Virus record (IMG/VR): IMGVR_UViG_3300010964_000009
Span: 1 to 29,062 of that record
Strand: one strand, 5' to 3'
Source: a virus
Lineage: Duplodnaviria; Caudoviricetes
DNA: 29,062 nt
Shown here: positions 1,557 to 17,320 of the stretch, piece by piece
Position numbering within the stretch: position 1 is the first letter of the stretch
Layout of the letters: each line of letters starts with the position of its first letter
The notes under the pieces: model-generated
What the model was told of the DNA's origin: nothing
What the model saw: only the letters and a program-made list of their open reading frames with translations
Databases searched by the model: none
Translations under genes and position numbers: made by a program

Positions 1557-1766
1557 ATGGGAACACAAGATGAAATTTTATTGCAGCATGAGCTTGAAGT
1601 TATGGCTGGTATCCTGGAGAGTAAGGCGCAATACCGTAAGATCGTTAAGGCTGGTATTGCTAAGTGGGTCAAGGACTTCCAGGACGGCCGAATTGAGATT
1701 AAGACGGTGGACGACCTAAAGAAGCTGATTGAAATAGATATTGAGCTGCAGAAGGATGAATTTTAG
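1557..1766 (+). CDS. Small hypothetical phage protein upstream of terminase
   Basis: 69-aa ORF with RBS GAGGGG at 1544-1549, phage-like base composition. Confidence 0.75.
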   Translation: MGTQDEILLQHELEVMAGILESKAQYRKIVKAGIAKWVKDFQDGRIEIKTVDDLKKLIEIDIELQKDEF

Positions 1767-2356
1767 TCTGATTTTAATTTGTCAGTTTTTTTATTATCGT
1801 TAGCCTCATTAGTAGAATCGACGGTTGGTACTTCTTTATGAATTTCCTCCGCAATTAACAAGTGCTTATTTATAAGTATATTTGATCTTGCTGTAGCGAA
1901 ATTATTTATGAAAGAATACAAATTGACGAAAATTATCAACATTAAGAGTAATGAGACTAAATTAAAAGCTAGGTCTCCAAAACTAAATAAAGTTTCTAAA
2001 TCTTCTTTGAATAAGGCAATGCTTATTGTCACTATTACTGCTGTTAAGGGAATAATTGATGAGATCATTTTAAAAAGATCCTCAAATCCTTGATCCTTAC
2101 CTTTTGATTCTTTCAAAAACTTTAACTCTAGAATAATTCGCTTCATATTAATATCTGGGTCGCTGTTTATGTGAGTATATGCTTTAATAAGTTTTGTTAC
2201 CTCATCATAACAGTTTAGACTTTGAGTGCAGATTGCCCTTTCTATTAGATTCTCAACTTGTTTTCTTAGCTTGACATATTTACTTCTTTCCACCCAAATC
2301 AATAAAATAGTTAAAAATAATAAAAATGCAGTAGCGATCAGGTTTAATATAGACAT
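1763..2356 (-). CDS. AT-rich moron membrane protein (about 3 TM segments), function unknown
   Basis: GGAGG RBS 9 nt before ATG 2356 (MSILNLIATAFLL); hydrophobic segments; opposite strand to the phage operon. Confidence 0.8.
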   Translation of the reverse strand: MSILNLIATAFLLFLTILLIWVERSKYVKLRKQVENLIERAICTQSLNCYDEVTKLIKAYTHINSDPDINMKRIILELKFLKESKGKDQGFEDLFKMISSIIPLTAVIVTISIALFKEDLETLFSFGDLAFNLVSLLLMLIIFVNLYSFINNFATARSNILINKHLLIAEEIHKEVPTVDSTNEANDNKKTDKLKSD

Positions 2357-2378
2357 CAGTATCATCCTCCTTTTTCTT

Positions 2379-2406
2379 ATATCGGAAAATATTGAGAGAG
2401 GTTTTA
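2379..2406 (-). promoter_or_regulatory. SigD (sigma28)-like promoter for the minus-strand moron
   Basis: Minus strand reads TAAA-N16-TCCGATAT; consensus is TAAA-N15/16-GCCGATAT. Confidence 0.35.
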
Positions 2407-2430
2407 ACTTAGGAGGTGGTGAAATGTAGC

Positions 2431-3330
2431 ATGACCAGAGAACGCAGTCCCGAGCGGGACAAGGCAAAGCAGATGTGGCTGGAGAGCGGCGGGACGATGA
2501 AGCTTAAGGACATCGCAGCTGCTCTTTTTGTTGGCGAAAATAAGGTGCGAAAATGGAAGTCAATTGATCATTGGGAAAAGGAAGTCAAAGGGAACGTTCC
2601 ACTTGTATCCAAAGGGAGCGTTCCAATTGAAATGAAAGGGAGCGTTCCACTTCGCGGCGCTCCCAAAGGGAACAAAAACGCAGTCGGCAATCGAGGTGGT
2701 GCTCCTCCGGGCAATCAAAATGCGAAGGGAAACAGCGGTGGTGCCGGTGGGCCGCCTGGCAACAAGAAGGCAGTCACCACAGGCGAGTATGAAACCATTT
2801 GGTTGGATGCGTTAACCGAAACAGAGCAGCAGCTCATCGATCAGGTGGACACTGACCCGATCATCCAGGCGAATGAATCCCTTTATCTTCTAACGATCCG
2901 TGAGCGCCGCATGATGCACCGGATCAAATCCCTGATGGATGGGTTATCCGAGACCGAGCGCAGTGTGCTCTACGAGATGAAGGCCATCAAGGAAGTCGCG
3001 GAGATCCATGATGAGAAGACCGGAATTACGAAGAAGATCCCACACAGTAGAAATGAAATGATGGAGTCGAAGATCGAAGAGAAGGGTTTCCGAAAGCTGG
3101 ACGATATTGTGAAGCTGGAGGAAGCATTAACCCGCATCCAGGATAAGAAGATCCGCGCCATTGAGCTCAAGAATCGATTGACTGACGACGAAAAGCGTAT
3201 CCGTATCGAGACCATGGAGTATGAGTTACAGATGCTTCGTGGCGGGGGTAAGGAAGACTTCGAAGACGATGGTTTCTTGGATGCGCTGAAGGGTAGGGCG
3301 GCGGAGGTGTGGAACGATGGTGAAGCTTAA
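2431..3330 (+). CDS. terS: Phage terminase small subunit
   Basis: N-terminal RERSPERDKAKQMW...LKDIA...VRKWKSIDHW HTH and GAPKGNKNA repeats; directly upstream of terL. Confidence 0.88.
   Translation: MTRERSPERDKAKQMWLESGGTMKLKDIAAALFVGENKVRKWKSIDHWEKEVKGNVPLVSKGSVPIEMKGSVPLRGAPKGNKNAVGNRGGAPPGNQNAKGNSGGAGGPPGNKKAVTTGEYETIWLDALTETEQQLIDQVDTDPIIQANESLYLLTIRERRMMHRIKSLMDGLSETERSVLYEMKAIKEVAEIHDEKTGITKKIPHSRNEMMESKIEEKGFRKLDDIVKLEEALTRIQDKKIRAIELKNRLTDDEKRIRIETMEYELQMLRGGGKEDFEDDGFLDALKGRAAEVWNDGEA
2587..2652 (+). repeat. Three 18-bp direct repeats at a 24-bp period within terS
   Basis: AAAGGGAACGTTCCACTT (2587), AAAGGGAGCGTTCCAATT (2611), AAAGGGAGCGTTCCACTT (2635). Confidence 0.85.
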
Positions 3331-4633
3331 ACTCAAGCCGCCGGCATTCAAATGGGCTCCATTCTCCAACAAGCAGCTTAAAGTTCTTACTTGGTGGATG
3401 CCAGAGAGCCCGCACCACGATAAAGATGCAATCATCTGTGATGGTTCCGTCCGGGCCGGCAAGACGGTCTGTATGTCATTCTCCTATATAGCCTGGGCAA
3501 TGGACACCTTCCGAGGAGAACAGTTCGGCATGTCAGGGAAGACCATTGGTGCGCTACGACGTAACGTGGTCGGTCCGCTGAAACGTATGCTATCCAGCCG
3601 TGGGTATCATGTTCATGACAATCGATCTGAAAATGTTTTGACTGTGACCCGGGGCTTAATAAGCAATCGGTTCTTTTTATTTGGTGGACGAGATGAAAGC
3701 TCACAGGATCTAATCGCCGGGATCACGTTGGCAGGGATGTTCTTCGATGAAGTGGCGCTCATGCCGAAGTCCTTCGTTGACCAAGCGACTGCTCGTTGTT
3801 CTGTGGATGGTGCCAAGCTCTGGTTTAACTGCAACCCTGCGGGACCATATCATTGGTTTAAAAAGGAATGGCTGGACCAGCTGCAGAAGAAACACGCACT
3901 GCACCTACACTTCACAATGGAGGACAACCTTTCTCTTTCAGAGCGTGTACGGGAGCGGTACCGTCGCATGTACAGCGGGATATTTTATCAGCGGTACATC
4001 CTGGGGCTTTGGGTTATGGCGGAGGGAGTGATTTTCTCTAAGTTTAATGATGCGGTCCATAAGAAACCCCGAGACTGGTTCCCGGCCAAGTTTGATCGCA
4101 AGTTCATTTGTATTGACTACGGGGCCAACAACCCGACGGCATTCTTGAAATACGGGGTCCGAGGGAACGTCTATTATGAAATCGATGAGTATTATCACAA
4201 TATCCGCCATAAGGGTGAGAAAACGAATGGTGAATATGCGGATGACCTTGAGGCCTTCCTTGATGGTGATGAGTATTCAATCTTCATCGACCCATCAGCA
4301 AAGGCTTTTATTATTGAGTTGAAGAAGCGTGGGATCAACAATATCCGAGCTGCGGTGAATACCGTACTGGACGGTATTCAGACAGTGTCCAACCGGTTCC
4401 AGAACAATGAACTTTATATCTGTGCAGATAACACCAATTCGCTTCAGGAGTTGGTGTCTTACGTATGGGATGAAAAAGCCGCTGAACGGGGCGAAGACAA
4501 GCCCATTAAGCAAAACGACCATACCTGTGACGCACGCCGATACGGTATCCATACGGATTATCTGTTGCAGCGTGTAAAGCAGCGTAAAAAAGAGAGAGAG
4601 GAGCGATCTGATCATGATGTGGGGTGGGTGTAA
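3317..4633 (+). CDS. terL: Terminase large subunit, PBSX family
   Basis: Walker A DGSVRAGKT, Walker B FFDEVA, NCNP motif, nuclease IDYG and DHTCDARRY. Confidence 0.95.
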   Translation: MVKLKLKPPAFKWAPFSNKQLKVLTWWMPESPHHDKDAIICDGSVRAGKTVCMSFSYIAWAMDTFRGEQFGMSGKTIGALRRNVVGPLKRMLSSRGYHVHDNRSENVLTVTRGLISNRFFLFGGRDESSQDLIAGITLAGMFFDEVALMPKSFVDQATARCSVDGAKLWFNCNPAGPYHWFKKEWLDQLQKKHALHLHFTMEDNLSLSERVRERYRRMYSGIFYQRYILGLWVMAEGVIFSKFNDAVHKKPRDWFPAKFDRKFICIDYGANNPTAFLKYGVRGNVYYEIDEYYHNIRHKGEKTNGEYADDLEAFLDGDEYSIFIDPSAKAFIIELKKRGINNIRAAVNTVLDGIQTVSNRFQNNELYICADNTNSLQELVSYVWDEKAAERGEDKPIKQNDHTCDARRYGIHTDYLLQRVKQRKKEREERSDHDVGWV

Positions 4634-6115: not shown

Positions 6116-6938
6116 AGAATGCTGGGAGCTCATCGCCAAAGCGGACGATACTGAGTTTTTGGATAGTTTGGAGCTGACTCATGCGGAGTGGACAGTGCTG
6201 GAAGATTTGTACAAGCAGGGTGAAACCCGAATAGTTGAAATCCTTGAGCTGCAGGGGAAGGCGCTGCATGATGCAATCCTGGAACTCAGTGAGGAACTAC
6301 TGATTGATATCGGTGAACTTGGGAAGGTGCTACTGTCGGTTCAGAGCGGGGATCTCTTTACGGTACAGTTCGAGCAAGCAGTGTATGATGCTTTCACTCC
6401 GCTGTACCATCTAGCTGGCGAATCGGAACTAACGTCGCTGAACACCGACAAGATCTGGTCTAACAAGAATAAGGCGGCATCCCGGTTCGCAAAGAATCTG
6501 CAGAAGCTTGTTCCTGTTATGAACGGGACCAGCAAGGATGTTATGACCCGGGCATTTCAAAAAGCCATAAAAGAGGGGAAGACACCTTCTGAACGTGCGC
6601 TATTGGTTAGGAGTGTCAGCGAAGTGGCTGCCAAAGGAGAAGCTGGTCCTTTTATGATGGAGAGGGCCATTACCGTTTCTCGTACAATGAGCACTGCAGC
6701 GGCCAACGGCGGTAAGATGGAGGGTTGGAAGCAATCTGAGGTGGTCACTGGTAAGAAGTGGAGGTCTTCCAAGGGCGATCGGACCCGTAAGACACACCGT
6801 AAAGCCAATGGCCAGGTGCAGCCGCTAAACAAGCCTTTTGAAGTCGGTAAGAGTAAGTTGATGTTTCCGGGAGATCCTTCTGGACGTGCTGAGGAGATTA
6901 TCCGCTGCCGGTGTACGATGCAATCTGTAATGGAATGA
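6108..6938 (+). CDS. Minor head morphogenesis protein (SPP1 gp7/Mu F-like)
   Basis: KKWRS..DRTRKTH..ANGQ..PFEVG..LMFPGDP..EIIRCRC signature; follows portal. Confidence 0.9.
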   Translation: MCKECWELIAKADDTEFLDSLELTHAEWTVLEDLYKQGETRIVEILELQGKALHDAILELSEELLIDIGELGKVLLSVQSGDLFTVQFEQAVYDAFTPLYHLAGESELTSLNTDKIWSNKNKAASRFAKNLQKLVPVMNGTSKDVMTRAFQKAIKEGKTPSERALLVRSVSEVAAKGEAGPFMMERAITVSRTMSTAAANGGKMEGWKQSEVVTGKKWRSSKGDRTRKTHRKANGQVQPLNKPFEVGKSKLMFPGDPSGRAEEIIRCRCTMQSVME

Positions 6939-7060
6939 AAAAGGTAATTTCCCAACTAATCTTCTTCTTTTAGTTAATATGAATTAAAAAAAATGGAGGG
7001 GATTATTTTGAATGAGGAATAGAAGACTGAGTAAATAGAGTAATAAGCTGATGATGATCA

Positions 7061-7082
7061 TTAAGCGAACGGGCAGGATAAC
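7061..7082 (+). repeat. Cassette-boundary dyad, B type (opens array 1)
   Basis: TTAAGCGAAC-GGGCAG-GATAAC; 20 of 21 nt identical to 13104-13124. Confidence 0.8.
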
Positions 7083-7128
7083 GCAATACTTATATGGAAT
7101 ACATTTGAAACATCAAATACTATGAGGA

Positions 7129-7629
7129 GTGAAAAATTTGCGGTATAGAGCTTGTTCTCTTTGCATTATTAAAAGAAGAGAATCAATATTACTTGAACAA
7201 TTCCCGGAAGAAGATGGTATCATTACATTTCGCCCAGTTGGTGGCACGATTGAGTATGGGGAAGATAGCAAATCAGCTGTAATACGAGAAGTAAAAGAGG
7301 AAATTAATATTGATATTATTGAACCAAGATTGATAGGAATTATCGAGCACATCTTCCCTTGGTACGGAGAAATTGGGCATGAATATGATTTTATTTATGA
7401 AGCGAGCTTTAGTCGAATGGATGACTACAACAAGAATGAATTTGAAGGGATTGAGGGGGACAAAAAGTTTATAGCTGTTTGGAAGAGCTTAGATGATTTT
7501 GAAGAAAACCTTCAGTATAAACTTGTTCCTGACGGTCTTTATGAGATGCTTACAAGTGGGCAAATTTCTGATATTAAACATATTAACACAAAAGATTTAT
7601 TGGCTTTTAAAGGGTCTTCATTAACCTAA
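7129..7629 (+). CDS. NUDIX hydrolase (cassette gene)
   Basis: Nudix box GGTIEYGEDSKSAVIREVKEEINI; RBS spacing favours TTG 7138 as the start; stop TAA lies inside the boundary motif. Confidence 0.9.
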   Translation: MKNLRYRACSLCIIKRRESILLEQFPEEDGIITFRPVGGTIEYGEDSKSAVIREVKEEINIDIIEPRLIGIIEHIFPWYGEIGHEYDFIYEASFSRMDDYNKNEFEGIEGDKKFIAVWKSLDDFEENLQYKLVPDGLYEMLTSGQISDIKHINTKDLLAFKGSSLT

Positions 7630-7700
7630 CGGGAAACTATAGTCAATAATGAGATGGCTACCGAGAGGTAGCCCTTTGGTCAAATAACGGGCAGTTTAGC
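7621..7700 (+). repeat. Complete composite junction (A dyad + hairpin + B dyad), attC-like
   Basis: TTAACCTAAC-GGGAAAC-TATAGTC; hairpin GGCTACC-gaga-GGTAGCC 7656-7673; GTCAAATAAC-GGGCAG-TTTAGC. Confidence 0.75.
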
Positions 7701-7795
7701 AGGATACTCCATTAATCTCAAGGTAGCTTATAAAATTGTATTTTGTTACGATAGGTGTAACCAAATTTTGGATGATTTAATGAGGGGGCTATTCT

Positions 7796-8353
7796 ATGTA
7801 CATAGCTATAATTGATGATCAGACATACCTATCTATTCTCCAGCAGACACATTCTCAAGAGTTATTTGATTTAATTGATGGTAGTCGTGATTCTTTAAAA
7901 AGTTGGCTTGAGTTTCCTGATAAAACAATTACAGTTGATGATACAGAGGCCTTTATTCATCGATCTTTAAGTAGATTTGCAAATAATAATGGATACTGGG
8001 CGGGTATCTGGCATAAAGGAGAAATCGTAGGATCAATAGGATATTTATGGATTGATTCGGATTCTAAAAGAACTGAAATAGGTTATTGGTTAGGGTCCAA
8101 ATTTGAAGGTAAAGGTATTATGACTAAGGCCTGTAATACCTTCATAACGCATGCTTTTAATGATTTACATTTAACTAAGGTTGAGATTGGAGCAGCAACT
8201 AATAACATCAAAAGTAGGGCGATACCAGAACGTCTAGGATTTACTCAGGAAGGGGTAATTCGAAACTACGAGTTGCTGCACAATCAATACCTTGACCGAG
8301 TTATATACGGTCTTATTAAAGAGGAATGGCTAGCGCGAAATTCGCTAACCTAA
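7796..8353 (+). CDS. GNAT acetyltransferase, RimJ/RimL family (cassette gene)
   Basis: EIGYWL...GKGIMT...NIKSRAIPERLGFTQEG motifs; stop TAA inside the boundary motif. Confidence 0.92.
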   Translation: MYIAIIDDQTYLSILQQTHSQELFDLIDGSRDSLKSWLEFPDKTITVDDTEAFIHRSLSRFANNNGYWAGIWHKGEIVGSIGYLWIDSDSKRTEIGYWLGSKFEGKGIMTKACNTFITHAFNDLHLTKVEIGAATNNIKSRAIPERLGFTQEGVIRNYELLHNQYLDRVIYGLIKEEWLARNSLT

Positions 8354-8396
8354 CGGGACACGATAGCTTAATAGAGATCAGGAGAAGGCTGTCGAT
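8345..8396 (+). repeat. A dyad with half a hairpin (truncated junction)
   Basis: CTAACCTAAC-GGGACAC-GATAGCTTAA, then AGGCTGTCGAT identical to 13833-13843; no 3' arm or B dyad. Confidence 0.75.
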
Positions 8397-8431
8397 GGAA
8401 TACTGTGTTTTTAAAAGGAGATGAGGTGGTT

Positions 8432-8749
8432 ATGCAAGGCTTAAAAAAAGATGTTGTTATATTACTTGAATCAATTGTTTTTTTGGCTATTGGCTTGTTA
8501 CTTACTGTAAATGTAGCAAGTAAAATTTATGAGAGTTTTGGAATTGAATTTATAGGTAATGTTTGGGTTAATTGGTTCGGAGTTTCTTACTTTCTTTTTG
8601 TATTATACACGGTTATTACTGGACTATTTATTATGAAGAATACTATCTACTTTAAGCAACGTCTGAAATCAAAATTTTTTTGGTTTCTTTTTATTGGTTC
8701 AATTTACATAATCTCTATTCCATTTGTAAAAGGAGAAAACCCATTCTAA
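8432..8749 (+). CDS. Small membrane protein, about 3 TM (cassette gene)
   Basis: GAGGTG RBS before ATG 8432; three hydrophobic segments; AT-rich. Confidence 0.8.
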   Translation: MQGLKKDVVILLESIVFLAIGLLLTVNVASKIYESFGIEFIGNVWVNWFGVSYFLFVLYTVITGLFIMKNTIYFKQRLKSKFFWFLFIGSIYIISIPFVKGENPF

Positions 8750-8819
8750 TTGAACTAACGGACACGATAGTTAAAAACCGGCGGTAGTCTAGGGCAATTT
8801 TTGTCCATGATTGCCGCCG
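8750..8819 (+). repeat. A dyad plus long hairpin closing array 1
   Basis: TTGAACTAAC-GGACAC-GATAGTTAAA right after the stop; stem CGGCGGTAGTC/GATTGCCGCCG (8779-8789/8809-8819). Confidence 0.75.
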
Positions 8820-8887
8820 TTTCTATTATTAGGCTCAGTCTATTATTTATTTAACGAATTTTGGCGCCATTACAATTCAGAATCTGC

Positions 8888-8917
8888 AAGGAGTCATCTA
8901 ATAATAGCTTCTTTTTT
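8888..8917 (+). terminator. Possible weak intrinsic terminator after array 1
   Basis: AAGGAGT...GCTTCTT imperfect stem followed by a T run. Confidence 0.3.
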
Positions 8918-8941
8918 ATTGAAAGGAGGTGAGAACAGAAT

Positions 8942-10168
8942 ATGAGCTATAAACTGAAAGATGCTAAAATCACGCATATCTCTCTGGTAGACAAGGGAGC
9001 CAACGGCGTGCCGTTTGCTATCATCAAGGCTGCCGGGAAGAACGCCATCCAGAAGCAGGTGCAAATCGCCAAGATTGACGATGATAAGCGGATTGTAAAG
9101 GGCGTGGTGTATCAGCCCGATGTGGCAGACGCACATGACGATCAAATGGATGAAGTCGAGATCGAGAAGGCAGCCCACCTCTTCATGGAGAAGCAGCACA
9201 CCTATAACATCGACAAGCAGCATGATCTCGAAGTCGATAAGGGTTTTGTCATTGAGTCGTACATTGCTCCTTGCGACATGACGCTTGGTGAGCAGCAGAT
9301 CTCGAAGGGCTCCTGGGTGGCAGCTGTGAAAGTCACTGACGACGACACTTGGGAAGACATCAAGAAAGGTGAGATAACCGGATTTTCAATGTGGGGTGTT
9401 GGGAAGCGGGAAGAGATCGAGGAGGAAGAGGAGGTATCCAAGGGAATCTTGAGCCGAATAGCCAAGGCGCTGGGCCTGATTGAGAAAGGCGCGGTCGCAG
9501 ATAAATATCATAAGAACCGGAAGAACCGAGAATTTTGGGCGGCACAGGATGCCCTCAACTCGGTTCTTTTTAATTGGGACACTTGGCAAAGTGGTCTGGA
9601 AACCGATCCGGAGACCATCCGGGAGGCCCTGCAGGACTTTGTTGATATTGCTGAGGATGTGCTGACCAAGGAAGATATCGTCAAAGCCATCGGTACACCC
9701 CCAGAGAAAATTGCCAAAGCTGGGAAGAAGATTTCCGCAGGTAACCTGAAACACGTCGACGATGCTATTGCAGCATTGACCGAGCTTAAAAATAAAACGG
9801 CTCCTGTAGAACAAGAGCTCGAGGAGGATAACGATTTGAAAGCTGAAGATATTGCCAAGGCTGTAACGGCCGCACTGGCCCCGATCGCAAAGCAGGTGGA
9901 AGGCCTGACGTCTGAGATTGCGGAGCTTAAGAAAGAAGAAGGTGTTGAAAGTGGCCAACCTGCAGGTAGTGCTGCTCCAGCTACTACCGTAGAAGAGAAT
10001 GCAGTTACAGAAGCCATAGCAAAAGCTCTGGCACCACTAAGTGAGCAGATGCAGACGCTGGCAGCCGATGTGCAATTGGTAAAGAATAGCCGTGGTGCTT
10101 CCGCGCAAGGTGATGAAGAAGAAATCAGCAAATCAGAAGGCGCCGTTAGTTTCGGACGCTTCCTGTAA
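8942..10168 (+). CDS. XkdF-like putative prohead protease with C-terminal scaffold region
   Basis: ITHISLVDKGAN, KRIVKGVVYQP, IDKQHD, IKKGEITGFSMWG motifs; precedes capsid. Confidence 0.88.
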   Translation: MSYKLKDAKITHISLVDKGANGVPFAIIKAAGKNAIQKQVQIAKIDDDKRIVKGVVYQPDVADAHDDQMDEVEIEKAAHLFMEKQHTYNIDKQHDLEVDKGFVIESYIAPCDMTLGEQQISKGSWVAAVKVTDDDTWEDIKKGEITGFSMWGVGKREEIEEEEEVSKGILSRIAKALGLIEKGAVADKYHKNRKNREFWAAQDALNSVLFNWDTWQSGLETDPETIREALQDFVDIAEDVLTKEDIVKAIGTPPEKIAKAGKKISAGNLKHVDDAIAALTELKNKTAPVEQELEEDNDLKAEDIAKAVTAALAPIAKQVEGLTSEIAELKKEEGVESGQPAGSAAPATTVEENAVTEAIAKALAPLSEQMQTLAADVQLVKNSRGASAQGDEEEISKSEGAVSFGRFL

Positions 10169-10189
10169 TTCGAAGGAGGAATGCAAATC

Positions 10190-11137
10190 ATGAGAACAAA
10201 CGGTAACATCGCTAGTACGAGCATTCGTAAATCAACTATCGTCACATCAATGGATCAAAACGCTCTGAATTATGAGGAAGTCGAGGCCTTTACGGATATG
10301 GCGTACGAAGCAAATGGCTTCCTAAAAGGGATTCGTCATGAGAACCGGAAGAGTTCAAAAGGGACAATTGATAAAGTAGGTGTACGGGGCCGGAACATGC
10401 GCAGTAAAAAAGAGAATATTATGGCTTCCAACACGCCTGGTTTGACCTTTCCACAGATCCCTTATTCAGTGGAGCCGGTAATTGTTCCATTTGATATTAC
10501 CGAGGAATTTATTCGCCAAACTCAGCGGGTGCGTGGACAAAACGCAGAGGATATTATCATGCGGGCTATGGCTAACAACTATGGTGAGAATATGCAAGAC
10601 ATCGGTTTTAATGGTGATACGGCAACTTCGAACACGGATCCGGATTATGAGTTTTTGAGCATAAATGACGGTTGGTTGAAGAAGGCACGTACCACCGGTC
10701 ATTACTTAGATTGGAAGACACTTTCGGCTAAAGAGAAAACAGGGATTTTGTTTGAGGTCGAACGTGCGATACCAACCCGTTATCGTGCTGGTGGGGTATT
10801 TAAATACTTTATGCATCCAAATACTTTCAGCGAGCGACTACAAATGTTGGCTGAGAAGGACACCAGCGCATCTATTCAATTGCAGATCTTGGGGGGCACG
10901 AAGAAAGTCAATGCTTATGATGTAGAAGAGGTCTGGAGTATGCCAGAGGGAGCGATCCTCTTTACGTATCAGCCGAACTTTGCAATGGTCCACACCTACG
11001 ATATGCAGATTCGGAAGACGACTGAGGGCAAGGAGGCAATCTGGACTGATAAGCGTTTCTATGCGATTCATTCCGATTTTGACGCCATTTTTGAAGAACC
11101 TCAGGCACTGGCTTATGTGGAAGGGGTGGAATTCTAA
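10190..11137 (+). CDS. Major capsid protein (XkdG-like)
   Basis: About 315 aa after the protease; GFNGD...FLSINDGWLK motif; AAGGAGG spacing favours ATG 10190 over 10181. Confidence 0.88.
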   Translation: MRTNGNIASTSIRKSTIVTSMDQNALNYEEVEAFTDMAYEANGFLKGIRHENRKSSKGTIDKVGVRGRNMRSKKENIMASNTPGLTFPQIPYSVEPVIVPFDITEEFIRQTQRVRGQNAEDIIMRAMANNYGENMQDIGFNGDTATSNTDPDYEFLSINDGWLKKARTTGHYLDWKTLSAKEKTGILFEVERAIPTRYRAGGVFKYFMHPNTFSERLQMLAEKDTSASIQLQILGGTKKVNAYDVEEVWSMPEGAILFTYQPNFAMVHTYDMQIRKTTEGKEAIWTDKRFYAIHSDFDAIFEEPQALAYVEGVEF

Positions 11138-11442
11138 TGCCATACGTAACCTATCGAGGCAAGAACGCCTCACTTCGGCTGTATAGTATTCGTTTTGAGC
11201 CAGCTAATCCGGTACTGGTGGAAGATTCGGTTGTGCTGGAAAAACTGCATGAGCATCCTGATTTTGAAGTGAATGCAGAGAAGGTCATTCCGCTGGAAGA
11301 TCTGACAGTTGTCCAACTAAAGGACAAAGCGAAGAAAGCAGGCATTGAAGGCTTTGCGGATATGAATAAGCCGAAGTTGATCACTGCACTGAAGGTGCTG
11401 GAGGGCGGCGGTGTGCCGGATGCTAACAACGACACTCCTTAA
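11137..11442 (+). CDS. Small head-associated protein with Rho N-terminal-like helical motif
   Basis: LEDLTVVQLKDKAKKAGIEGFADMNKPKLITAL; follows capsid. Confidence 0.7.
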   Translation: MPYVTYRGKNASLRLYSIRFEPANPVLVEDSVVLEKLHEHPDFEVNAEKVIPLEDLTVVQLKDKAKKAGIEGFADMNKPKLITALKVLEGGGVPDANNDTP

Positions 11443-11806
11443 GAACCGCAGCCGTGTCAGTGCTGTACAAGAGGCGACAGAGGATTTGCTTAATCAGTAC
11501 ATTGATGACGCACAGACCCGGATTGAGTTGTATTTGCCTGTTTCTTTTCCGGAGGAGGCAGATAAGCAGCTCATGCTGGCCTGGGTGAAGCTGGCGGAGT
11601 CACTGGCTCTGCAGGATAGTGAGGAATACCTGGCTTCCGTCGCCCGCGGCTACTCAGCGGAAAGTGACGGCGCTTGGACATATACCCGACAGGCAGTTGA
11701 AGGGAAGACTACAGGCAATGCTGATGTGGACTCTATCCTCTTCCTGTGGGTCAAGAAGCAGCAGTCCGGGCCGAATGATGGGAACATCACGGCCTATTTG
11801 CTATGA
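11420..11806 (+). CDS. Putative head-tail connector (adaptor)
   Basis: Position and size; AESDGAWTYT motif like gp6/gp15-type adaptors. Confidence 0.65.
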   Translation: MLTTTLLKNRSRVSAVQEATEDLLNQYIDDAQTRIELYLPVSFPEEADKQLMLAWVKLAESLALQDSEEYLASVARGYSAESDGAWTYTRQAVEGKTTGNADVDSILFLWVKKQQSGPNDGNITAYLL

Positions 11807-12129
11807 ATCACCGCATGAATACCCCGTTGGCAGTCTACCGGGTCGGCCGCCAGCAGGATGCGGACAATCTATTCAGCGATCGGAAGGCAGGAAAGATCGC
11901 AGATTTGAAATGTTTCGTTGTTAAGACGCAGACTGATGCTAAGGCAGAATCCACTCCTGTCATATACATTGTAAAAAAGACAATTGGGGTTCCGAAGACA
12001 GCAGACGTCCGAATTAGTGACGAGGTGTTGCTGTTCGGACGTAAATATCTGGTGATTGACTCTAACCCTCGCCGTTACTGGCGTGAGTTATTGGTGACTT
12101 GCGAGGTGAAGGGCAGTGAACATGCATGA
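11803..12129 (+). CDS. Putative head closure / head-tail joining protein
   Basis: 108 aa, overlapping start and stop, neck-module position. Confidence 0.6.
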   Translation: MNHRMNTPLAVYRVGRQQDADNLFSDRKAGKIADLKCFVVKTQTDAKAESTPVIYIVKKTIGVPKTADVRISDEVLLFGRKYLVIDSNPRRYWRELLVTCEVKGSEHA

Positions 12130-12610
12130 TTTTGATGGTTTGGCCAAGAAATTCAAGAAGCTGAGCGACGAAGGGGTTAGTCAGATCCTTAAGAACATTG
12201 CTGAAGCTGTGGGCGAAACACTTTTGAACCTGGTCATCGATGAAATTGATAAACAGGATCTGATTGACACTGGATTGATGTGGAACTCCTTTACTCGTGG
12301 GGAGGACAATAACATTTGGGAATGGGATGTAGACCGTAACTCTATTTCTATCGAAGTGGGTTCAAACCTTACTTACGCACGCTATCTCAATGATGGCTAC
12401 ACCATCCATAAGGCGCACTTTGTCCCCGGCTATTGGGCAACAAATGGAACATTTGTCTATGATCCCAGGGCAAAGGGTGGATTTATGGCTAAGCCACGAT
12501 CGTTCATTGGTCGACATTACTTTGATATTGCTGTTCAACAGCTGGAAGGTGGCATGAATGCATTAATTATGAAGCGTCTGGAGAAGGAGCTGGGGAGGAT
12601 GCTATCATGA
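12116..12610 (+). CDS. HK97 gp10-like neck protein
   Basis: IDTGLMWNS, EVGSNLTYARYLNDG, FIGRHYF motifs. Confidence 0.8.
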   Translation: MNMHDFDGLAKKFKKLSDEGVSQILKNIAEAVGETLLNLVIDEIDKQDLIDTGLMWNSFTRGEDNNIWEWDVDRNSISIEVGSNLTYARYLNDGYTIHKAHFVPGYWATNGTFVYDPRAKGGFMAKPRSFIGRHYFDIAVQQLEGGMNALIMKRLEKELGRMLS

Positions 12611-13095
12611 TGGATGTGGGATTGAAAGCCTGGGCAGAACTCGTGCAGCGGATATACCCGGATCTACCGATTCTTCGAGATCGTTCCCTTTGGCTGGCAG
12701 GGCAGTTTGATCGTCCGAGCGTGTTCATTGAGACGGATCTTGTCTCTGACAAGGCTCATACGCCGCGGGCAGACCGGATCATCGAGGATGTGGGTTTGGT
12801 TTTTCATTACGACATCGACCGTAGTGTGGTAGAGGAGGCCGGGGAACCGTTCCCTTTGGACTTATCTCCGTTCTTCCTGTACCTTCGCCAGCGGCGGTTC
12901 TGCGTGGTTTCGCAGCGCTTTGGAATCATGATGGTTATTGAAGCCCCGCGTACTCGGCCAATGAATGACCGGATGGAAGTTACGTTTCGGTATTCATACC
13001 TGTTGCATGTTCCGAAACTTGTGATCAAAGATAACGGGCAGCACGTTCAGAAGATTAATGAATTTTTTATTGAGCCAGGTTGTTTTAAAGTTTGA
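12607..13095 (+). CDS. Putative tail terminator/completion protein
   Basis: Last neck gene; FDRPSVFIE motif; C-terminus abuts array 2. Confidence 0.55.
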   Translation: MMDVGLKAWAELVQRIYPDLPILRDRSLWLAGQFDRPSVFIETDLVSDKAHTPRADRIIEDVGLVFHYDIDRSVVEEAGEPFPLDLSPFFLYLRQRRFCVVSQRFGIMMVIEAPRTRPMNDRMEVTFRYSYLLHVPKLVIKDNGQHVQKINEFFIEPGCFKV

Positions 13096-13103
13096 TTCTG
13101 TTG

Positions 13104-13125
13104 TTAAGCTAACGGGCAGGATAAT
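13104..13125 (+). repeat. Cassette-boundary dyad, B type (opens array 2)
   Basis: TTAAGCTAAC-GGGCAG-GATAAT. Confidence 0.8.
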
Positions 13126-13178
13126 TCTAGTAGATATCGAATTTACCTTTGTTAACAATGTTTAATAGGGGGCAGGCT

Positions 13179-13771
13179 ATGCAAGGAAGAGAATTGTATG
13201 TTTATCACATTGTAACTAGGAAGAAGATGGCCTAGGTCAAACAATTAGCTTTGACAAAAACCAAAAAAATACCTTGTATCACTTCTTTTTTGAGAAGGAA
13301 CAGCTGAATTCCAAAAGTGAAGACTTTGTTCAAATCTTACACGGTCATTATACAAATGAAGGCTTGAAGTTTGATAAAGAGAATGCAGATGTAGCTTTTA
13401 AATATGTGGAGCAAACTATCAGAGCTATTAGAGAAGTAATAGTTGAAATGGTTAGACTGCAAGAATATCCTGAATATCCTTCACGATTGTCTTGCTTATA
13501 CGCTGCGAAAAGCTATCAAGACGCTCTGAAATGGAAAGAACTTTTTGATTCTTACCATCGAAGGGTTTTGCAGATAGTGAAACTTCGGGTTATTGGGGCT
13601 ATCTTTGAAGGTGACGGCAGTCTTTTACCAAAGGAAGATGGAATTCCTTTCTCCCGAAAAATTGAACAAGCAAGAGAATATTGGAAAGGTAATATAAATA
13701 ACGAACTTCCTGAGCTGCTGATTAACGGAAAAATCGAAGTTGTAGAAATTATTGATGAATTTTCCGCATAA
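13179..13771 (+). pseudogene. DUF2441-like cassette gene with a 1-nt frameshift near codon 18
   Basis: RBS + ATG 13179 reads [18 protein letters not shown]-stop; the -1 frame continues [19 protein letters not shown] into ORF 13274-13771 ([20 protein letters not shown]...AREYW...PELLING); family recalled from motifs. Confidence 0.7.
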
Positions 13772-13797
13772 TTTCAACAAATGCGCCTGAAAAACCA

Positions 13798-13880
13798 TTG
13801 CGCTAAAGGGAAACGATAGCATCATGACGAACAGGCTGTCGATATTATTGGCTACCTGTTCAACTAACGAGCAGCTTAAC
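13798..13880 (+). repeat. Complete composite junction (A dyad + hairpin + B dyad), attC-like
   Basis: TTGCGCTAAA-GGGAAAC-GATAGC; hairpin GAACAGG...CCTGTTC 13829-13861; TTCAACTAAC-GAGCAG-CTTAAC. Confidence 0.75.
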
Positions 13881-13932
13881 AGAAATTTATATAAACTCAA
13901 GATGTATTGATAAGAAAGGAGTTGAAACGGAG

Positions 13933-14205
13933 ATGAATATGAGAAAGAGTATTAATACCTATTCCATTTTTTTCTCGATGTTATGTTGGGTTGGTTTCTA
14001 TCTGTCAGGATTCACCTCTGTATTGCCTGTTAATAGTCATTTAATAATACTTTGGCTAGCTATATTTTCCTTATTAATGAGTGTCTTTGGACTTGGTGGT
14101 ATTAATAATTGGAAAACAGTTTCAAGCTCGCTAGTCTCAATTCTCTTAAGTGGATTATTGGTAATTGTTGAATTACTACTTTTTGTATTTTCTGAGTATT
14201 TATGA
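13933..14205 (+). CDS. Small 3-TM membrane protein (cassette gene)
   Basis: 90 aa, almost all hydrophobic, AAAGGAG RBS, AT-rich. Confidence 0.8.
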   Translation: MNMRKSINTYSIFFSMLCWVGFYLSGFTSVLPVNSHLIILWLAIFSLLMSVFGLGGINNWKTVSSSLVSILLSGLLVIVELLLFVFSEYL

Positions 14206-14228
14206 TTAAGCTAACGAAGAACAATAAT
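14206..14228 (+). repeat. Degenerate A dyad closing array 2
   Basis: TTAAGCTAAC-GAAGAAC-AATAAT directly after the TGA stop. Confidence 0.6.
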
Positions 14229-14236
14229 ACGGCATT

Positions 14237-14263
14237 AACCACCTAAGGAAAGGCGGTTTTTTT
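14237..14263 (+). terminator. Intrinsic terminator after array 2
   Basis: AACCACCT-aaggaa-AGGCGGTT stem (one mismatch) plus T run. Confidence 0.6.
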
Positions 14264-14293
14264 GGTCCGGAAAAAGGGAGGAATATTTAAAGC

Positions 14294-14539
14294 ATGAACC
14301 TAAAAAAACAGATTCGCCAGGGCGTTGATGTTGTTCTAGATGACCTGAACAAGCGAACAAAGCAGGAATGGATTGAGAGCGCAGTGGTTTTGAAGCGGGA
14401 ACGCTTTGAAATTGCTGGCGCTCTTTTTGATTGTAGAGATGATGCCCTGCTGTCACAGCTGGAAGTCATTCAGAAAGTAGACGCCTACTTGGGTCTGAAA
14501 ACAAAGGAGGAAACAGTGAATGTCAATACAACGGAATAG
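14294..14539 (+). CDS. Small pre-sheath protein (YkzM/YqzN-like)
   Basis: 81 aa overlapping the sheath start; FEIAGALF motif; PBSX-like synteny. Confidence 0.6.
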   Translation: MNLKKQIRQGVDVVLDDLNKRTKQEWIESAVVLKRERFEIAGALFDCRDDALLSQLEVIQKVDAYLGLKTKEETVNVNTTE

Positions 14540-15872
14540 ACCAGGGGCGTATGTGGAGCTGCAGGCGGTTGCGAAATCTCGTGTCTTATCGGTATCCGGC
14601 CGTGTGCTGGTGCCGTATCAAGCGGAGTGGGGATTGCCAAATAAAGCAGTGGATATGGCGGATCAGTCCGAGCGTTTCAAGGAATCTGGCCTACTTGTAG
14701 ATGAGTTGGAACTGGCTGCAGAGAATGGCGCTACGGTAGTTGGTTATAGAGTTACGAATGGAAATGAGGTAGCTGCCTCGGTTGCTGTAGCTAGTAGCTA
14801 CACTATAGAAGCTCGTTATCCAGGTACTCGTGGAAATGATTTTGAGTACCTAATTCGGGCAAGTCTGGTGGATGCAACAAAGAAAGAGATTGTCATTCGG
14901 GATACGAAAGGTATCTATGATACTGAGACGTTCTTGGTCGCTGATAAAACTGAAGCTATCAATGCTCTGAAAAAGTCCAACATGGTGCGTTTTAAGGACA
15001 CAGGTGCAACGACGCTGGCTGATGTTGCCTATACAAAGTTGGCCGGCGGAGTTACCGGTACTGCAGCGATTACGGCAGCCAATTGGAGCGGTATATTTAA
15101 TCGAATTGATGGCCTGGTATTTGATGTCGTGTACTTGCCTTCCTCTGAAGCTTCGGTTCAAGCAGCCGCGAAACAATGGTTGCTGGATCGCCGCACCAAG
15201 GCTCGCAAACTTGCACAGCTGGTCATTGCAGGGGCATTGGAAACTGATGATGACATTGAAGATCATAATACGCGCAGTCGCGCAGCCAATGCTCGGTTTA
15301 TCATCAATTGCTCTTTGGCTGGTGAACACACCAATGGTAAGACCTATGGTTCTCTTCACTGGGCAGCATGGGTGGCTGGACTTGCAGCTGGAACACCGGC
15401 GAATAAATCATTTACGGGTGTTAAGGTACCAATGACTGAAGCGCTAGTAGATTGGAGCCATAGTGAGGTTTTGAAGGGGTTGGCTGAGGGTACCCTGATG
15501 GCTACACGGGATGGTTACGACTATATTATTGAGTCCGCAGTGAACACATTGACCACGCTTGGTGCAGGGGAACGGGAGGACTTCGGCAAGATTCGAGTTT
15601 CCATGACGATTGACCAAATCCTGAATGACATCTACACTGCTGGCAAAGCAAACAAGGCTAAGCTGGATAATGACAAGGATGGTCGGGGTATGTTTATCGC
15701 AGCAGTCGTTAGTTATCTGAAGACTCGTGCTGGACAGAAGGCGATTGACTCAGAGTTTATATTTACTGAGCATCCAACGAAGAAAAGTGATATGGATTAT
15801 GCTTACTTCTCCCTATCTGCAAAACCGCTGGACGCGATTGAGATCTTTAATATTGATTGGGAGGTGGCGTAA
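14520..15872 (+). CDS. Contractile tail sheath protein (XkdK-like)
   Basis: RPGAYVE, EARYPGTRGN, AAWVAGLAAG, FGKIRV, PLDAIEIF motifs. Confidence 0.93.
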   Translation: MSIQRNRPGAYVELQAVAKSRVLSVSGRVLVPYQAEWGLPNKAVDMADQSERFKESGLLVDELELAAENGATVVGYRVTNGNEVAASVAVASSYTIEARYPGTRGNDFEYLIRASLVDATKKEIVIRDTKGIYDTETFLVADKTEAINALKKSNMVRFKDTGATTLADVAYTKLAGGVTGTAAITAANWSGIFNRIDGLVFDVVYLPSSEASVQAAAKQWLLDRRTKARKLAQLVIAGALETDDDIEDHNTRSRAANARFIINCSLAGEHTNGKTYGSLHWAAWVAGLAAGTPANKSFTGVKVPMTEALVDWSHSEVLKGLAEGTLMATRDGYDYIIESAVNTLTTLGAGEREDFGKIRVSMTIDQILNDIYTAGKANKAKLDNDKDGRGMFIAAVVSYLKTRAGQKAIDSEFIFTEHPTKKSDMDYAYFSLSAKPLDAIEIFNIDWEVA

Positions 15873-15875
15873 TCG

Positions 15876-16319
15876 ATGGAACGCGAACTTATTGGCCGTA
15901 ATTTATCCGTACAGGATGACAATGGCGACTCTATTCAGACAATTAAAGAAGTGGAGGTTATCCTGAAGCCGGAGACACTGGATATTATCCGTGCGCGGAA
16001 GATGTCTAAGACGAAACAGATCGTCGGGTATGAGATCACCGTAAAGTTGGTTATGTCAAAACTGGAGTCCTCTCTTCGTTACAGGCTCCTAGCTGATTTT
16101 AAGGCGGGTAAGACGATGTTTCTAGACCGGATTACCGGCTCTCTTGAGGACATGCAGACAGGTAATGTAGAACGGGTGATGATCAGCGGTGTGCATATTC
16201 ATGATGAAATGGATCTGCTGGTTGCCAAGATTGATGACAACAATGGCATTGATATCACACTGTCTGGTACCGCGAATGATTTTGATTTTATTGAACAGTT
16301 TCCGGATTATATGGCATGA
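15876..16319 (+). CDS. Tail tube protein (XkdM-like)
   Basis: 147 aa directly after sheath. Confidence 0.85.
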   Translation: MERELIGRNLSVQDDNGDSIQTIKEVEVILKPETLDIIRARKMSKTKQIVGYEITVKLVMSKLESSLRYRLLADFKAGKTMFLDRITGSLEDMQTGNVERVMISGVHIHDEMDLLVAKIDDNNGIDITLSGTANDFDFIEQFPDYMA

Positions 16320-16363
16320 ATTCTTAGAAGCACCCTGTAGTCATATTAGTGCTTCGAATAGGA

Positions 16364-16389
16364 AGGAATTGTAATAAGATTTAGAGAAT
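16364..16389 (+). promoter_or_regulatory. SigH-like promoter for moron 16427
   Basis: AGGA-N18-GAAT with AT-rich bases after AGGA. Confidence 0.4.
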
Positions 16390-16426
16390 ACAATGTATAC
16401 AAATTCGAAGAGAATAGAGGCAGGTT

Positions 16427-16669
16427 ATGCTTAAAAGGTACCTCATGAAATATCCTTTATGGTTCAAAATTATCTGGAGTTGTGTGGTAGTAGCATTTAT
16501 TATTGTATACTTAACCGGCTTTAATCCAGTAGTGTTATTTGGTGGAATGATAGTTTTGTATATAGCTAACGCTTTACGAGCTTGGAAAGGTGAAAGAAAT
16601 TTAGCGATTTCCTCCCTTATATTTGCCGTCGTATTCTCTTATGTTTTTTATAAATTCTTAATACTTTAA
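16427..16669 (+). CDS. Small 3-TM moron membrane protein
   Basis: 80 aa hydrophobic, AT-rich, own promoter-like motif and terminator, between tube and chaperone. Confidence 0.8.
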   Translation: MLKRYLMKYPLWFKIIWSCVVVAFIIVYLTGFNPVVLFGGMIVLYIANALRAWKGERNLAISSLIFAVVFSYVFYKFLIL

Positions 16670-16687
16670 GTATCGAAATACTCAATC

Positions 16688-16717
16688 AGACCGTCGTAAC
16701 TTTGACGGTCTTTTTCT
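16688..16717 (+). terminator. Intrinsic terminator of the moron
   Basis: AGACCGTC/GACGGTCT 8-bp stem plus T run. Confidence 0.8.
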
Positions 16718-16748
16718 ATTAAAAAATATCTTATTGGAGGTAGTATAC

Positions 16749-17159
16749 ATGAGCGATAAATTAGAAAAATATCTATCTAAGGGGAAATCAGGTCGGAACG
16801 ATGAAACCGTCACGGTGCCAGCAGACGGAGAAAATTGGTCAGTACGCCGCCTTACCACTATTGAGGTGCGCCGAGCTTATGAGCTGGCCTATGAAGACAA
16901 CGGGGATCCGAAAGAATCCTATAACGAGATTGATGTCATGATCGTTAAAGCAACTGAGCATGATTTCGATTGGAACAACAAAGATTTGCTGCTGGCTTTC
17001 AACTGCATCAGTAAGTATGAACTACCACCGCGTATCCTAGACAATCCTGCTGACTACGCTGAGCTAAGTAAGGCTGTGAACAAATTTCAAGAGACGAAAG
17101 ATGCGCTACTGAAAGAAGCAAAAAACTCATCAAGCAAGACGGAGAAGCAAGCTGGGTAG
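16749..17159 (+). CDS. Tail assembly chaperone (XkdN/gpG-like)
   Basis: Between tube and tape measure; GGAGG RBS before ATG 16749; slippery site near the 3' end. Confidence 0.85.
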   Translation: MSDKLEKYLSKGKSGRNDETVTVPADGENWSVRRLTTIEVRRAYELAYEDNGDPKESYNEIDVMIVKATEHDFDWNNKDLLLAFNCISKYELPPRILDNPADYAELSKAVNKFQETKDALLKEAKNSSSKTEKQAG

Positions 17160-17299
17160 CATCCTTTTGGATTAACCAGAAGCGGCTGCCAGCTGAAATC
17201 CTACCTTATGAGGTGGATAAACAACGGCAGTATTATTTCTGTCTTGCCGCGGGGATGATTGCTGAGGAAGAAGCCAAACGCCTGGCTAACAAGAAATAG
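17120..17299 (+). CDS. -1 frameshift extension of the tail chaperone (gpGT-like); missing from the ORF track
   Basis: A_AAA_AAC at 17120-17126; -1 frame open as KLIKQDGEASWVASFWINQKRLPAEILP...AKRLANKK to TAG 17297-17299. Confidence 0.85.
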   Translation, partial: KKLIKQDGEASWVASFWINQKRLPAEILPYEVDKQRQYYFCLAAGMIAEEEAKRLANKK

Positions 17300-17320
17300 G
17301 CGAGTTGGGGGTGAACAACT

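Follow-up and report, generated by a model that had tools for sequence, protein, structure and literature searches.

The question raised by this locus is whether the repeated box-and-hairpin junctions between small genes in a phage structural operon are recombination sites and, if so, whether they act as folded single strands or as duplex DNA. The window, by which we mean the whole stretch analyzed, is a virus record of 29,062 bases that begins with an IS3-type element and continues into a myovirus head and tail operon. Two AT-rich inserts break up this operon, one at 6939-8941, between a Mu F-like gene and the XkdF protease gene, and one at 13096-14293. A preliminary description had noted a four-box layout at 7621-7700, and each box was found at its reported position: boxes 1 and 2 are CTAAC (7626-7630) and TATAG (7638-7642), separated by GGGAAAC (7631-7637); boxes 3 and 4 are ATAAC (7684-7688) and TTTAG (7695-7699), separated by GGGCAG (7689-7694); and between the two pairs lies a hairpin, GGCTACC-GAGA-GGTAGCC (7656-7673). 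The same description had seen the layout again at 13798-13880, where we find it at 13797-13885. It read the junction mainly as a divergent attC site that folds as a single strand, with two tandem double-stranded simple sites as its fallback.

A genome collection was scanned with the junction pattern, yielding 135 loci from 30 of its 64 parts. The named genomes among them belong to Paenibacillus, Cohnella and close relatives, and the host of the phage is therefore presumed to be a Paenibacillus. From these 135 genome loci and from viral loci, 278 A-hairpin-B junctions were extracted; after 59 genome stretches were added, 444 junctions with an A-to-B distance of 50-80 were available. Logos of the junctions show that each box pair is extended by a conserved TTNAR / YTNAA and that the four arms are equivalent. 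Each pair is thus a site that is palindromic on its own, in which an 11-bp arm and an inverted arm flank a spacer: site A has 29 bp (11-7-11, with a 7-nt spacer) and site B has 28 bp (11-6-11, with the spacer GGGCAG). Eight identical bases are common to every site. The B spacer reads GGGCAG in 358 of 444 junctions, a figure inflated by the inclusion of the spacer in the selecting matrix. In 391 of 444 junctions the A spacer is one 6-mer with one base inserted at a variable place; A may have arisen from a 6-nt site and been kept because it no longer pairs with B.

Weight matrices for both sites were trained on the 278 junctions, including the two in the window, and gave a background of 2.4 matches per Mb in shuffled loci. 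In the window they found nine sites, all on the plus strand and all inside the two AT-rich inserts. The features of the two arrays are as follows.

7004-7059, plus strand: left flank of array 1, probably a decayed Tn7-like end with TnsB-site repeats, adjoining the first B
7060-7087, plus strand: site B1, 6-nt spacer, 34 bits; first site of array 1, with no A before it
7129-7629, plus strand: NUDIX hydrolase gene (PF00293), B-to-A module; stop codon inside box 1
7620-7648, plus strand: site A1, 7-nt spacer, boxes 1 and 2, 24 bits; exchange point
7656-7673, plus strand: central hairpin of the short A-to-B linker, the sole stable helix at the junction
7678-7705, plus strand: site B2, 6-nt spacer, boxes 3 and 4, 23 bits; exchange point
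7796-8353, plus strand: GNAT acetyltransferase gene (PF13302), B-to-A module
8344-8372, plus strand: site A2, 37 bits
8405-8749, plus strand: 114-aa hydrophobic ORF in a linker slot (A-to-B module), no Pfam match
8749-8776, plus strand: hybrid site, left half B and right half terminal A, 6-nt spacer
8777-8910, plus strand: right flank of array 1, apparently a decayed Tn7-like end with spaced TnsB-site repeats
13103-13130, plus strand: site B, first of array 2, 35 bits
13274-13771, plus strand: DUF2441 gene (PF10386), B-to-A module
13797-13885, plus strand: second A-hairpin-B junction (A 13797-13825, hairpin 13829-13861, B 13858-13885)
13933-14205, plus strand: 90-aa hydrophobic ORF, B-to-A module, no Pfam match
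14205-14233, plus strand: decayed terminal A of array 2, 15 bits; precedes the phage's own terminator-like hairpin

Better copies of the terminal A of array 2 occur in two related phages (L159, L168), and the place of the hybrid site is held by a B in L268 and by an A in L160. The start of the DUF2441 gene seems to lie near 13180, with an early frame change (13180-13274) relative to L222 and L066; its domain is whole. The module of the 114-aa ORF opens with half a typical linker hairpin (8373-8404), as it also does in L268, as though a linker had taken up a gene. Elsewhere in the window, two more AT-rich morons, at 1763-2467 (minus strand) and 16427-16669 (plus strand), have no A/B sites and no Pfam match, and the small terminase gene contains three 24-base tandem repeats (2581-2652). 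An Rfam search of the window and two arrays matched no family.

Array grammar and exchange at the two sites

Across the collected loci the two sites alternate in the order B-gene-A-hairpin-B-gene-A. Neighbors on this pattern comprise 455 short A-to-B and 491 gene-sized B-to-A intervals; off the pattern are 154 B-B, 111 A-A and 88 A-B intervals of gene size, and 25 B-B, 9 A-A and 6 B-A short ones. Some of the off-pattern intervals conceal decayed sites. Neighboring sites lie on the same strand in 1682 cases and on opposite strands in 12 (1694 in total), and the inverted order of dif-type sites was not found. The longest ORF is on the site strand in 435 of the 491 gene modules, which are thus co-oriented cassettes. 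There are also A-to-B modules of 0.4 and about 1 kb with precise ends, and lone B and lone A sites delimit the phage arrays. In long contigs (G002, G052), junction orientation switches from forward to reverse at a point in mid-chromosome, as is also seen for genes on the leading strand.

Exchange occurs at both sites, where different genes are found in related phages and in chromosomes of soil Paenibacillus. When gene ends at least 90% identical over 50 nt were compared at A, 69 of 80 pairs were followed by different partners and 9 by the same partner, with 2 unclear, across 29 gene families; this count leaves out 44 insertion-sequence-end sites and sites preceded by a linker. With insertion-sequence ends still included, genes and linkers were reassorted in 79 of 90. 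One gene end has six different partners. Within site A, positions -6 to -2 of the arm go with the gene, unlike the spacer. At B, with insertion-sequence ends retained, the sequence from box 4 onward tracks the right-hand gene in 23/31 to 56/56 informative pairs. The spacer class tracks the right-hand module, such that one gene end has A where a linker follows and B where another gene follows. The A spacer is identical in 50 of 109 same-linker pairs (20% by chance) and varies with neither flank cleanly. The preliminary description had proposed that crossovers be sought in the boxes; they do fall there, but in both A and B, and the cut position cannot be placed more finely inside the conserved core. 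A cut at one edge of the B spacer, hinted at by single cases, was not upheld by the counts.

The modules of the window illustrate this exchange. The NUDIX module (7065-7641) is 98.3% identical to a chromosomal copy (L190) that is bounded by B and A and then runs into a gene for a 280-aa recombinase in place of the hairpin. In the phage L160, identity of 98.8% extends to 7700, so that NUDIX gene and linker are kept, and a different gene follows. Contigs of sequencing runs X3 and X6 match 7068-7622 and continue into a different linker, a third partner at A1. From these comparisons, the NUDIX gene and the hairpin are separate modules. The GNAT module (7682-8366) is 87% identical to one in L083 with different flanks, and in runs X6 and X9 the match extends to 8368 and is followed by a hairpin linker. 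The module of the 114-aa ORF (8346-8764) is 97.4% identical to one in L268, where it ends in a normal B. In L222 and L162, other genes flank a linker nearly identical to 13797-13885. Against the mechanism favored below, a rare variant of box 3 has moved together with the NUDIX gene downstream of it. No excised circle was seen in the run data, which are contigs.

Cargo has also been swapped among related prophages. The left flank of array 1 is kept in 10 of 18 related phages and the right flank in 9 of these (L161 ends early); the window and these 10 relatives have 9 different first cassettes after B1. The remaining 8 of the 18 have no array at this position. Array 2 is present in 2 of 15 relatives covering the place, L159 and L168, which hold other genes after the same flank. 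The preliminary description was correct in taking the junction for a recombination site in an integron-like cassette array. A further phage, L173, has an A/B array at a third position, upstream of the terminase region (2053-3570), and none at the two structural positions. By family, cargo of phage arrays includes beta-lactamase-family (L159:15238-16599), aminoglycoside/hydroxyurea kinase-family (L160:10671-11672) and CdiI immunity (L167:11127-11525) proteins. A defence-island reading was rejected, as PADLOC gave just two weak matches among 24 proteins.

The sites are also targets of insertion. An IS110-family element (PF01548, PF02371) splits box 3 by inserting between CT and AAC, and a repeat of 60-70 bases or longer with a related habit does likewise; loci of these insertions are L224:8960-10165, L034:5658-6860, L091, L026, L220 and L234.

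A motif search of all loci identified the 280-aa tyrosine recombinase inside arrays. Its best model scores are to XerD, XerC and archaeal XerA, all below the cut-offs; it is collinear with XerD and has the R, K, HxxR, H and Y catalytic residues. The integron-integrase model gave 81.6 bits against a cut-off of 265, with the middle of the profile (positions ~183-239) unmatched, and none of five array-rich genomes had a match above that cut-off. Among 34 recombinase loci, five of them N-terminal fragments, site A lies 83-122 nt before the start in 19 and site B lies 23-67 nt past the stop in 17. The gene occupies the A-to-B slot: 22 recombinase modules comprise 16 of the 88 long A-B intervals, 5 B-B and 1 A-A, and none of the 491 B-A intervals. 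From this position we infer that the enzyme acts on A and B. One array (L043) has a XerS gene nearby, which was left out of account as a chromosomal neighbor. At three loci (L177:1428-1505, L178:590-665, L179:1420-1505) a conserved hairpin (z -4.1 to -6.1) sequesters the ribosome-binding site of the recombinase gene, likely as a translational brake.

It is likely that these sites belong to a gene-swapping system of integron-like kind, in which a small Xer-type enzyme carries out the exchange. As to mechanism, sequence comparison leads us to consider it reasonably probable that the dedicated 280-aa enzyme exchanges A with A and B with B as double-stranded DNA. A and B are direct repeats that divide the DNA into B-to-A gene modules and A-to-B hairpin or recombinase modules. 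Recombination would be mostly like with like, because the A and B spacers are of unequal length and end in different bases. The units of travel would be gene-plus-linker pairs, in through one site and out through the other, and in this way alternation would be kept while genes were recombined with other linkers. Occasional A x B events would account for gene-B-gene junctions and for hybrid sites like that at 8749-8776. Two observations bear against this pairing rule. Among 278 pairs sharing a linker, the preceding gene is common in only 3 and the following gene in only 3, figures that would equally fit linkers moving solo; and the variation of the A spacer with neither flank is awkward for strict spacer homology.

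Those few shared flanks suit another reading, in which the A-to-B unit is itself mobile: A-recombinase-B would be a 1-kb integrative element and the hairpin linkers its miniature non-autonomous forms. Modules would loop out between neighbors via the shared CTAACGGG, and linkers would insert singly into gene-B-gene junctions. Near-identical linkers between different genes on both sides, the 6 of 278 same-linker pairs that share one flank but not the other, the tracking of spacer type with the right-hand module and the presence of up to five recombinase matches in one genome would all be expected. Cre and Flp loop sizes, however, exceed a duplex circle of 59-70 bp, and single-gene insertions would spoil the alternation that dominates the arrays. 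We regard this reading as unlikely; it shares the enzyme and duplex sites with the exchange of A with A and B with B, and differs from it solely in the pairing rule.

The folded-site reading and the linker hairpin

A folded site would also be compatible with the 7-versus-6 asymmetry of the spacers and with modules that end at the outer two arms. According to this reading, A-hairpin-B would fold as a single strand, attC-like and with no strand choice, the top strand being cut in box 1 and the bottom strand in box 4. It would accommodate the four boxes with their 7- and 6-nt spacers, gene modules that end at arm 1 and begin at arm 4, and the A spacers made of a 6-mer and an extra base, which recall an extrahelical base. 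There is precedent in XerCD, which recombines folded single strands without an I2 domain, as described in the accessible part of PMC4792948. The boxes that define attC are seldom present. The ACCTAAC sequences reported at 7624 and 8348 do lie there and fit RYYYAAC, but the match is incidental: RYYYAAC occurs in 17 of 444 junctions and GTTRRRY in one.

Arms 2 and 3 always travel together and should thus covary if they are paired. In 444 junctions, however, z was at most 1.2 at the 11 positions, one of which was anti-correlated (z -6.7), and the inner boxes have an A-A mismatch in 242 of 278 junctions. In an alignment of 46 junctions (that of the window and all 45 with an A-to-B distance of 59), the attC-like structure had 67.0% of cells paired versus 68.7% after shuffling, with 497 of 500 shuffles as high. 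In the 22 rows of the window's linker family, picked by eye out of these 46, the values were 66.8% and 66.8%. Predicted DNA folds contained both proposed helices in 27 of 444 junctions on the top strand and 15 of 444 on the bottom strand. The attC-like fold of 7620-7705 came to +3.3 versus -8.3 kcal/mol when forced, a penalty of about 10 kcal/mol, in a comparison in which isolated pairs were forced and which had no true-attC control. Outer and inner boxes had been thought able to pair, yet only 12 of the 22 such pairs are possible at this junction. Neither DNA folding, RNA folding nor pair counts thus supported the folded attC-like structure, and a test of pairing between the two ends of a gene module was equally without covariation (z at most 1.8 in 490 modules). 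Interior hairpins have no marked strand preference in folding (top better in 224, bottom better in 176).

The behavior of the sites is also unlike that of attC. An attC site moves with its gene, with one crossover in R'; here, 69 of 80 pairs differ after A. The unpaired central spacer of attC is not conserved in sequence, according to the part of PMC5027507 available to us, whereas the spacers are conserved at these junctions. Use of both strands should invert cassettes, as the same portion of PMC5027507 indicates, and inverted neighbors number 12 of 1694. Lone sites, kilobase A-to-B modules and the helical-turn spacing described below are likewise at odds with folding. Folding of the junction is, in our judgment, quite improbable. 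Covariation of outer and inner boxes across homologous junctions was the test that the preliminary description had set for its main reading, and that reading falls by it; its fallback of two tandem double-stranded sites is the one that the data favor.

The distribution of A-to-B distances has two peaks, at 59 and 70 bp, separated by a minimum at 64-66, and both peaks are kept in 136 junctions that do not fit the search pattern. By linker family, the peak is at 59 in 23 of 76 and at 70 in 43 of 76, and the largest family spans both. The two peaks lie one helical turn apart, presumably a property of duplex DNA. Such spacing may fix the helical phase of A and B, either for a protein contact or to block the looping out of short linkers.

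The central hairpin itself is well supported and serves as a positive control for the covariation test. In 22 family members, 95% of cells pair and 5 of 10 pairs change on both sides, with 0 of 500 shuffles as high, although the structure was read from the same 22 sequences, which favors the hairpin somewhat in this test. Its one-sided changes are mostly to G-U on the top strand, which points to RNA. The linker hairpin is thus likely an RNA hairpin, either a weak terminator or a stabilizer. In array 1, a terminator scan was at chance level, the linker hairpin failing the terminator pattern, and a promoter scan of 6900-8960 gave 8 matches versus 8.6 expected by chance.

Distribution of the recombinase and the Tn7-like ends

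In a sample of 201 genomes of the family, the enzyme was found in 19 (E 1e-90), exact junctions in 37 and both in 13. Junctions are present in 13 of the 19 genomes with the enzyme versus 24 of the 182 without it (Fisher p 5e-7, or p 7e-6 without the two seed genomes, both values ignoring relatedness). The 24 junction genomes that lack an intact gene include 8 with fragments of at least 70% identity, in a search confined to site-bearing genomes. In a phylum sample of 401 genomes, five matched at 1e-70; one of these, G557, has a 50% identical relative with B-like sites beside one of its two copies. Homologues of 48-51% identity occur on 15 plasmids, 11 of them of Bacillus, and sites at the Bacillus mycoides plasmid homologue (50%) score weakly (9.8-9.9 bits). 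The best matches in cultured phages are 33-36%. The window has no recombinase, nor do any of five related prophage records (completeness 71-81%); since the prophage record is without the enzyme, a host copy would be used. In run X1 and three others, no contig covered the L190 recombinase gene at 80% likeness, a gap that proves nothing.

The absence of an intact gene from most junction genomes, and the variable cargo of phages whose related prophage records lack it, would be understandable if the 280-aa gene were a passenger and the sites were dif-like, recombined by the host's housekeeping Xer enzymes as for pdif; B indeed has the 28-bp, 11-6-11 geometry. We consider this very doubtful. The gene is in a fixed slot with sites at fixed distances, and its relative in G557 also adjoins B-like sites. 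Housekeeping Xer enzymes, moreover, should be present in all genomes of the family, 164 of 201 of which are without junctions. That the boxes are mere shared boundary sequences for homologous or microhomology recombination, like the mosaic joints of temperate phages, is scarcely credible: eight identical bases per site and the existence of hybrid sites would suit it, but this view does not explain the palindromic arms, the two classes of spacer, the strict alternation, the phasing or the site-bounded recombinase.

A third motif, with 174 occurrences, is found inverted just before B in 43 cases and as direct copies just after A in 40. In L285 this motif is repeated at the ends of a complete tnsABCDE element, which lies 26 nt from glmS. 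At this locus (3835-4230 and 9286-17615), another end and a cassette array come directly after the complete Tn7 at glmS. L286 (4496-16340) has, about 230 nt from glmS, an 11.8-kb mini-element with TGT and ACA ends and a 5-bp target duplication, in which B and A abut the ends; a partial scan of its ORFs showed none of the tns sizes seen in L285. Of the motif-bearing ends, 10 of 24 left ends have TGT and 10 of 15 right ends have ACA. Tn7-like ends also lie 14-27 nt from an A or B outside the element (L287:5984-6011, L289:13830-13844), as if a Tn7-like transposon inserted beside A/B sites.

The right flank of array 1, which shares its motif with the tnsABCDE ends, scored 93.5 against a chromosomal end (L233), with a shuffle maximum of 52. 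The left flank aligns with chromosomal mini-Tn7 ends, with a window score of 37 that is not significant (shuffle maximum 41), and nine phage relatives passed the left-flank motif filter. The repeats in the window are decayed, and no terminal TGT/ACA or target duplication remains. To judge from these remnants, array 1 probably arrived as a non-autonomous mini-Tn7, exchange of cargo continuing after its ends decayed. Array 2 has no Tn7-like ends.

Comparison with known systems

The literature that we searched, which extended to few subscription papers, contained no description of this system, and the accessible part of a survey of REP sequences (PMC3733652) does not mention Paenibacillus. All Firmicutes genomes surveyed in 2016 were without complete integrons, and the authors supposed an unknown barrier, as stated in the portion of PMC4889954 available. 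The present arrays show that one Firmicutes family has an integron counterpart, which probably works on duplex DNA. The ancestors of integron integrases are considered to be Xer-like recombinases of duplex DNA (PMC4792948, in its accessible part), and an Xer-like enzyme running cassette arrays therefore makes that scenario testable. For the phage, the arrays provide a cargo slot within the head and tail operon that can be refilled; acetyltransferase, phosphotransferase and beta-lactamase-family genes are among those carried. As a small enzyme from a single gene with two classes of site, the recombinase could be developed into a tool for cassette exchange in Gram-positive bacteria.

Heterospecific lox or FRT sites are used in the laboratory for recombinase-mediated cassette exchange. 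The arrays are similar in that two site classes with different spacers flank each gene; they differ in being natural, arrayed and tolerant of variation in the A spacer, and the like-with-like rule is here a proposed one. Tn7 carries tnsABCDE and has its attTn7 at glmS. In L285 and L286 the resemblance to Tn7 lies in TGT...ACA ends, contiguous and spaced TnsB-type repeats and a 5-bp duplication, to which L285 adds a complete element 26 nt from glmS. Unlike Tn7, the mini-elements carry only a cassette array, with the first B and last A abutting the ends, and the prophage ends are decayed.

Class 2 integrons are carried in Tn7, and carriage of the arrays between Tn7-like ends is a likeness to them. 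The arrays further resemble integrons in their mostly single, co-oriented accessory genes (GNAT, NUDIX, HIT, phosphotransferase), an XerCD-related tyrosine recombinase, an AAC triplet in the boxes and the existence of integrase-less arrays. In contrast to integrons, there is no covarying fold, spacers are conserved and genes do not keep their junction; the enzyme does not match the IntI-specific region and is encoded within the array, oriented like the cassettes. No attI was found, nor, in the promoter scan of array 1, a promoter for the array.

The closest mechanism is that of the dif modules of Acinetobacter plasmids. As described in the part of PMC13141974 accessible to us, pdif sites, on which XerC/XerD act, are 28-bp, two-arm sites with a 6-bp spacer, two module classes must alternate, and modules are added in pairs and shuffled at sites with like spacers; the arrays share the site and the alternation, and would share the pairwise addition and the shuffling at like spacers. 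Insertion sequences target pdif sites (accessible part of PMC10132070), and A/B sites are likewise targeted, those that hunt A/B sites resembling the IS1202-family elements that hunt pdif. Unlike pdif, with its inverted C/D and D/C sites, A and B are direct repeats told apart by spacer lengths of 7 and 6. Unlike dif modules, one class is mostly a gene-less hairpin of helically phased length, and the dedicated recombinase is itself a module, in Bacillota chromosomes and prophages. We tentatively suggest, as something that could well prove correct, a third independent cassette system, with heterospecific duplex sites, helical phasing, a swappable recombinase and mini-Tn7 spread, that brings cargo from a host pool to phages across Paenibacillaceae and some other Bacilli. 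The system is integron-like in its output and dif-module-like in its grammar, and is set apart from both by their defining tests.
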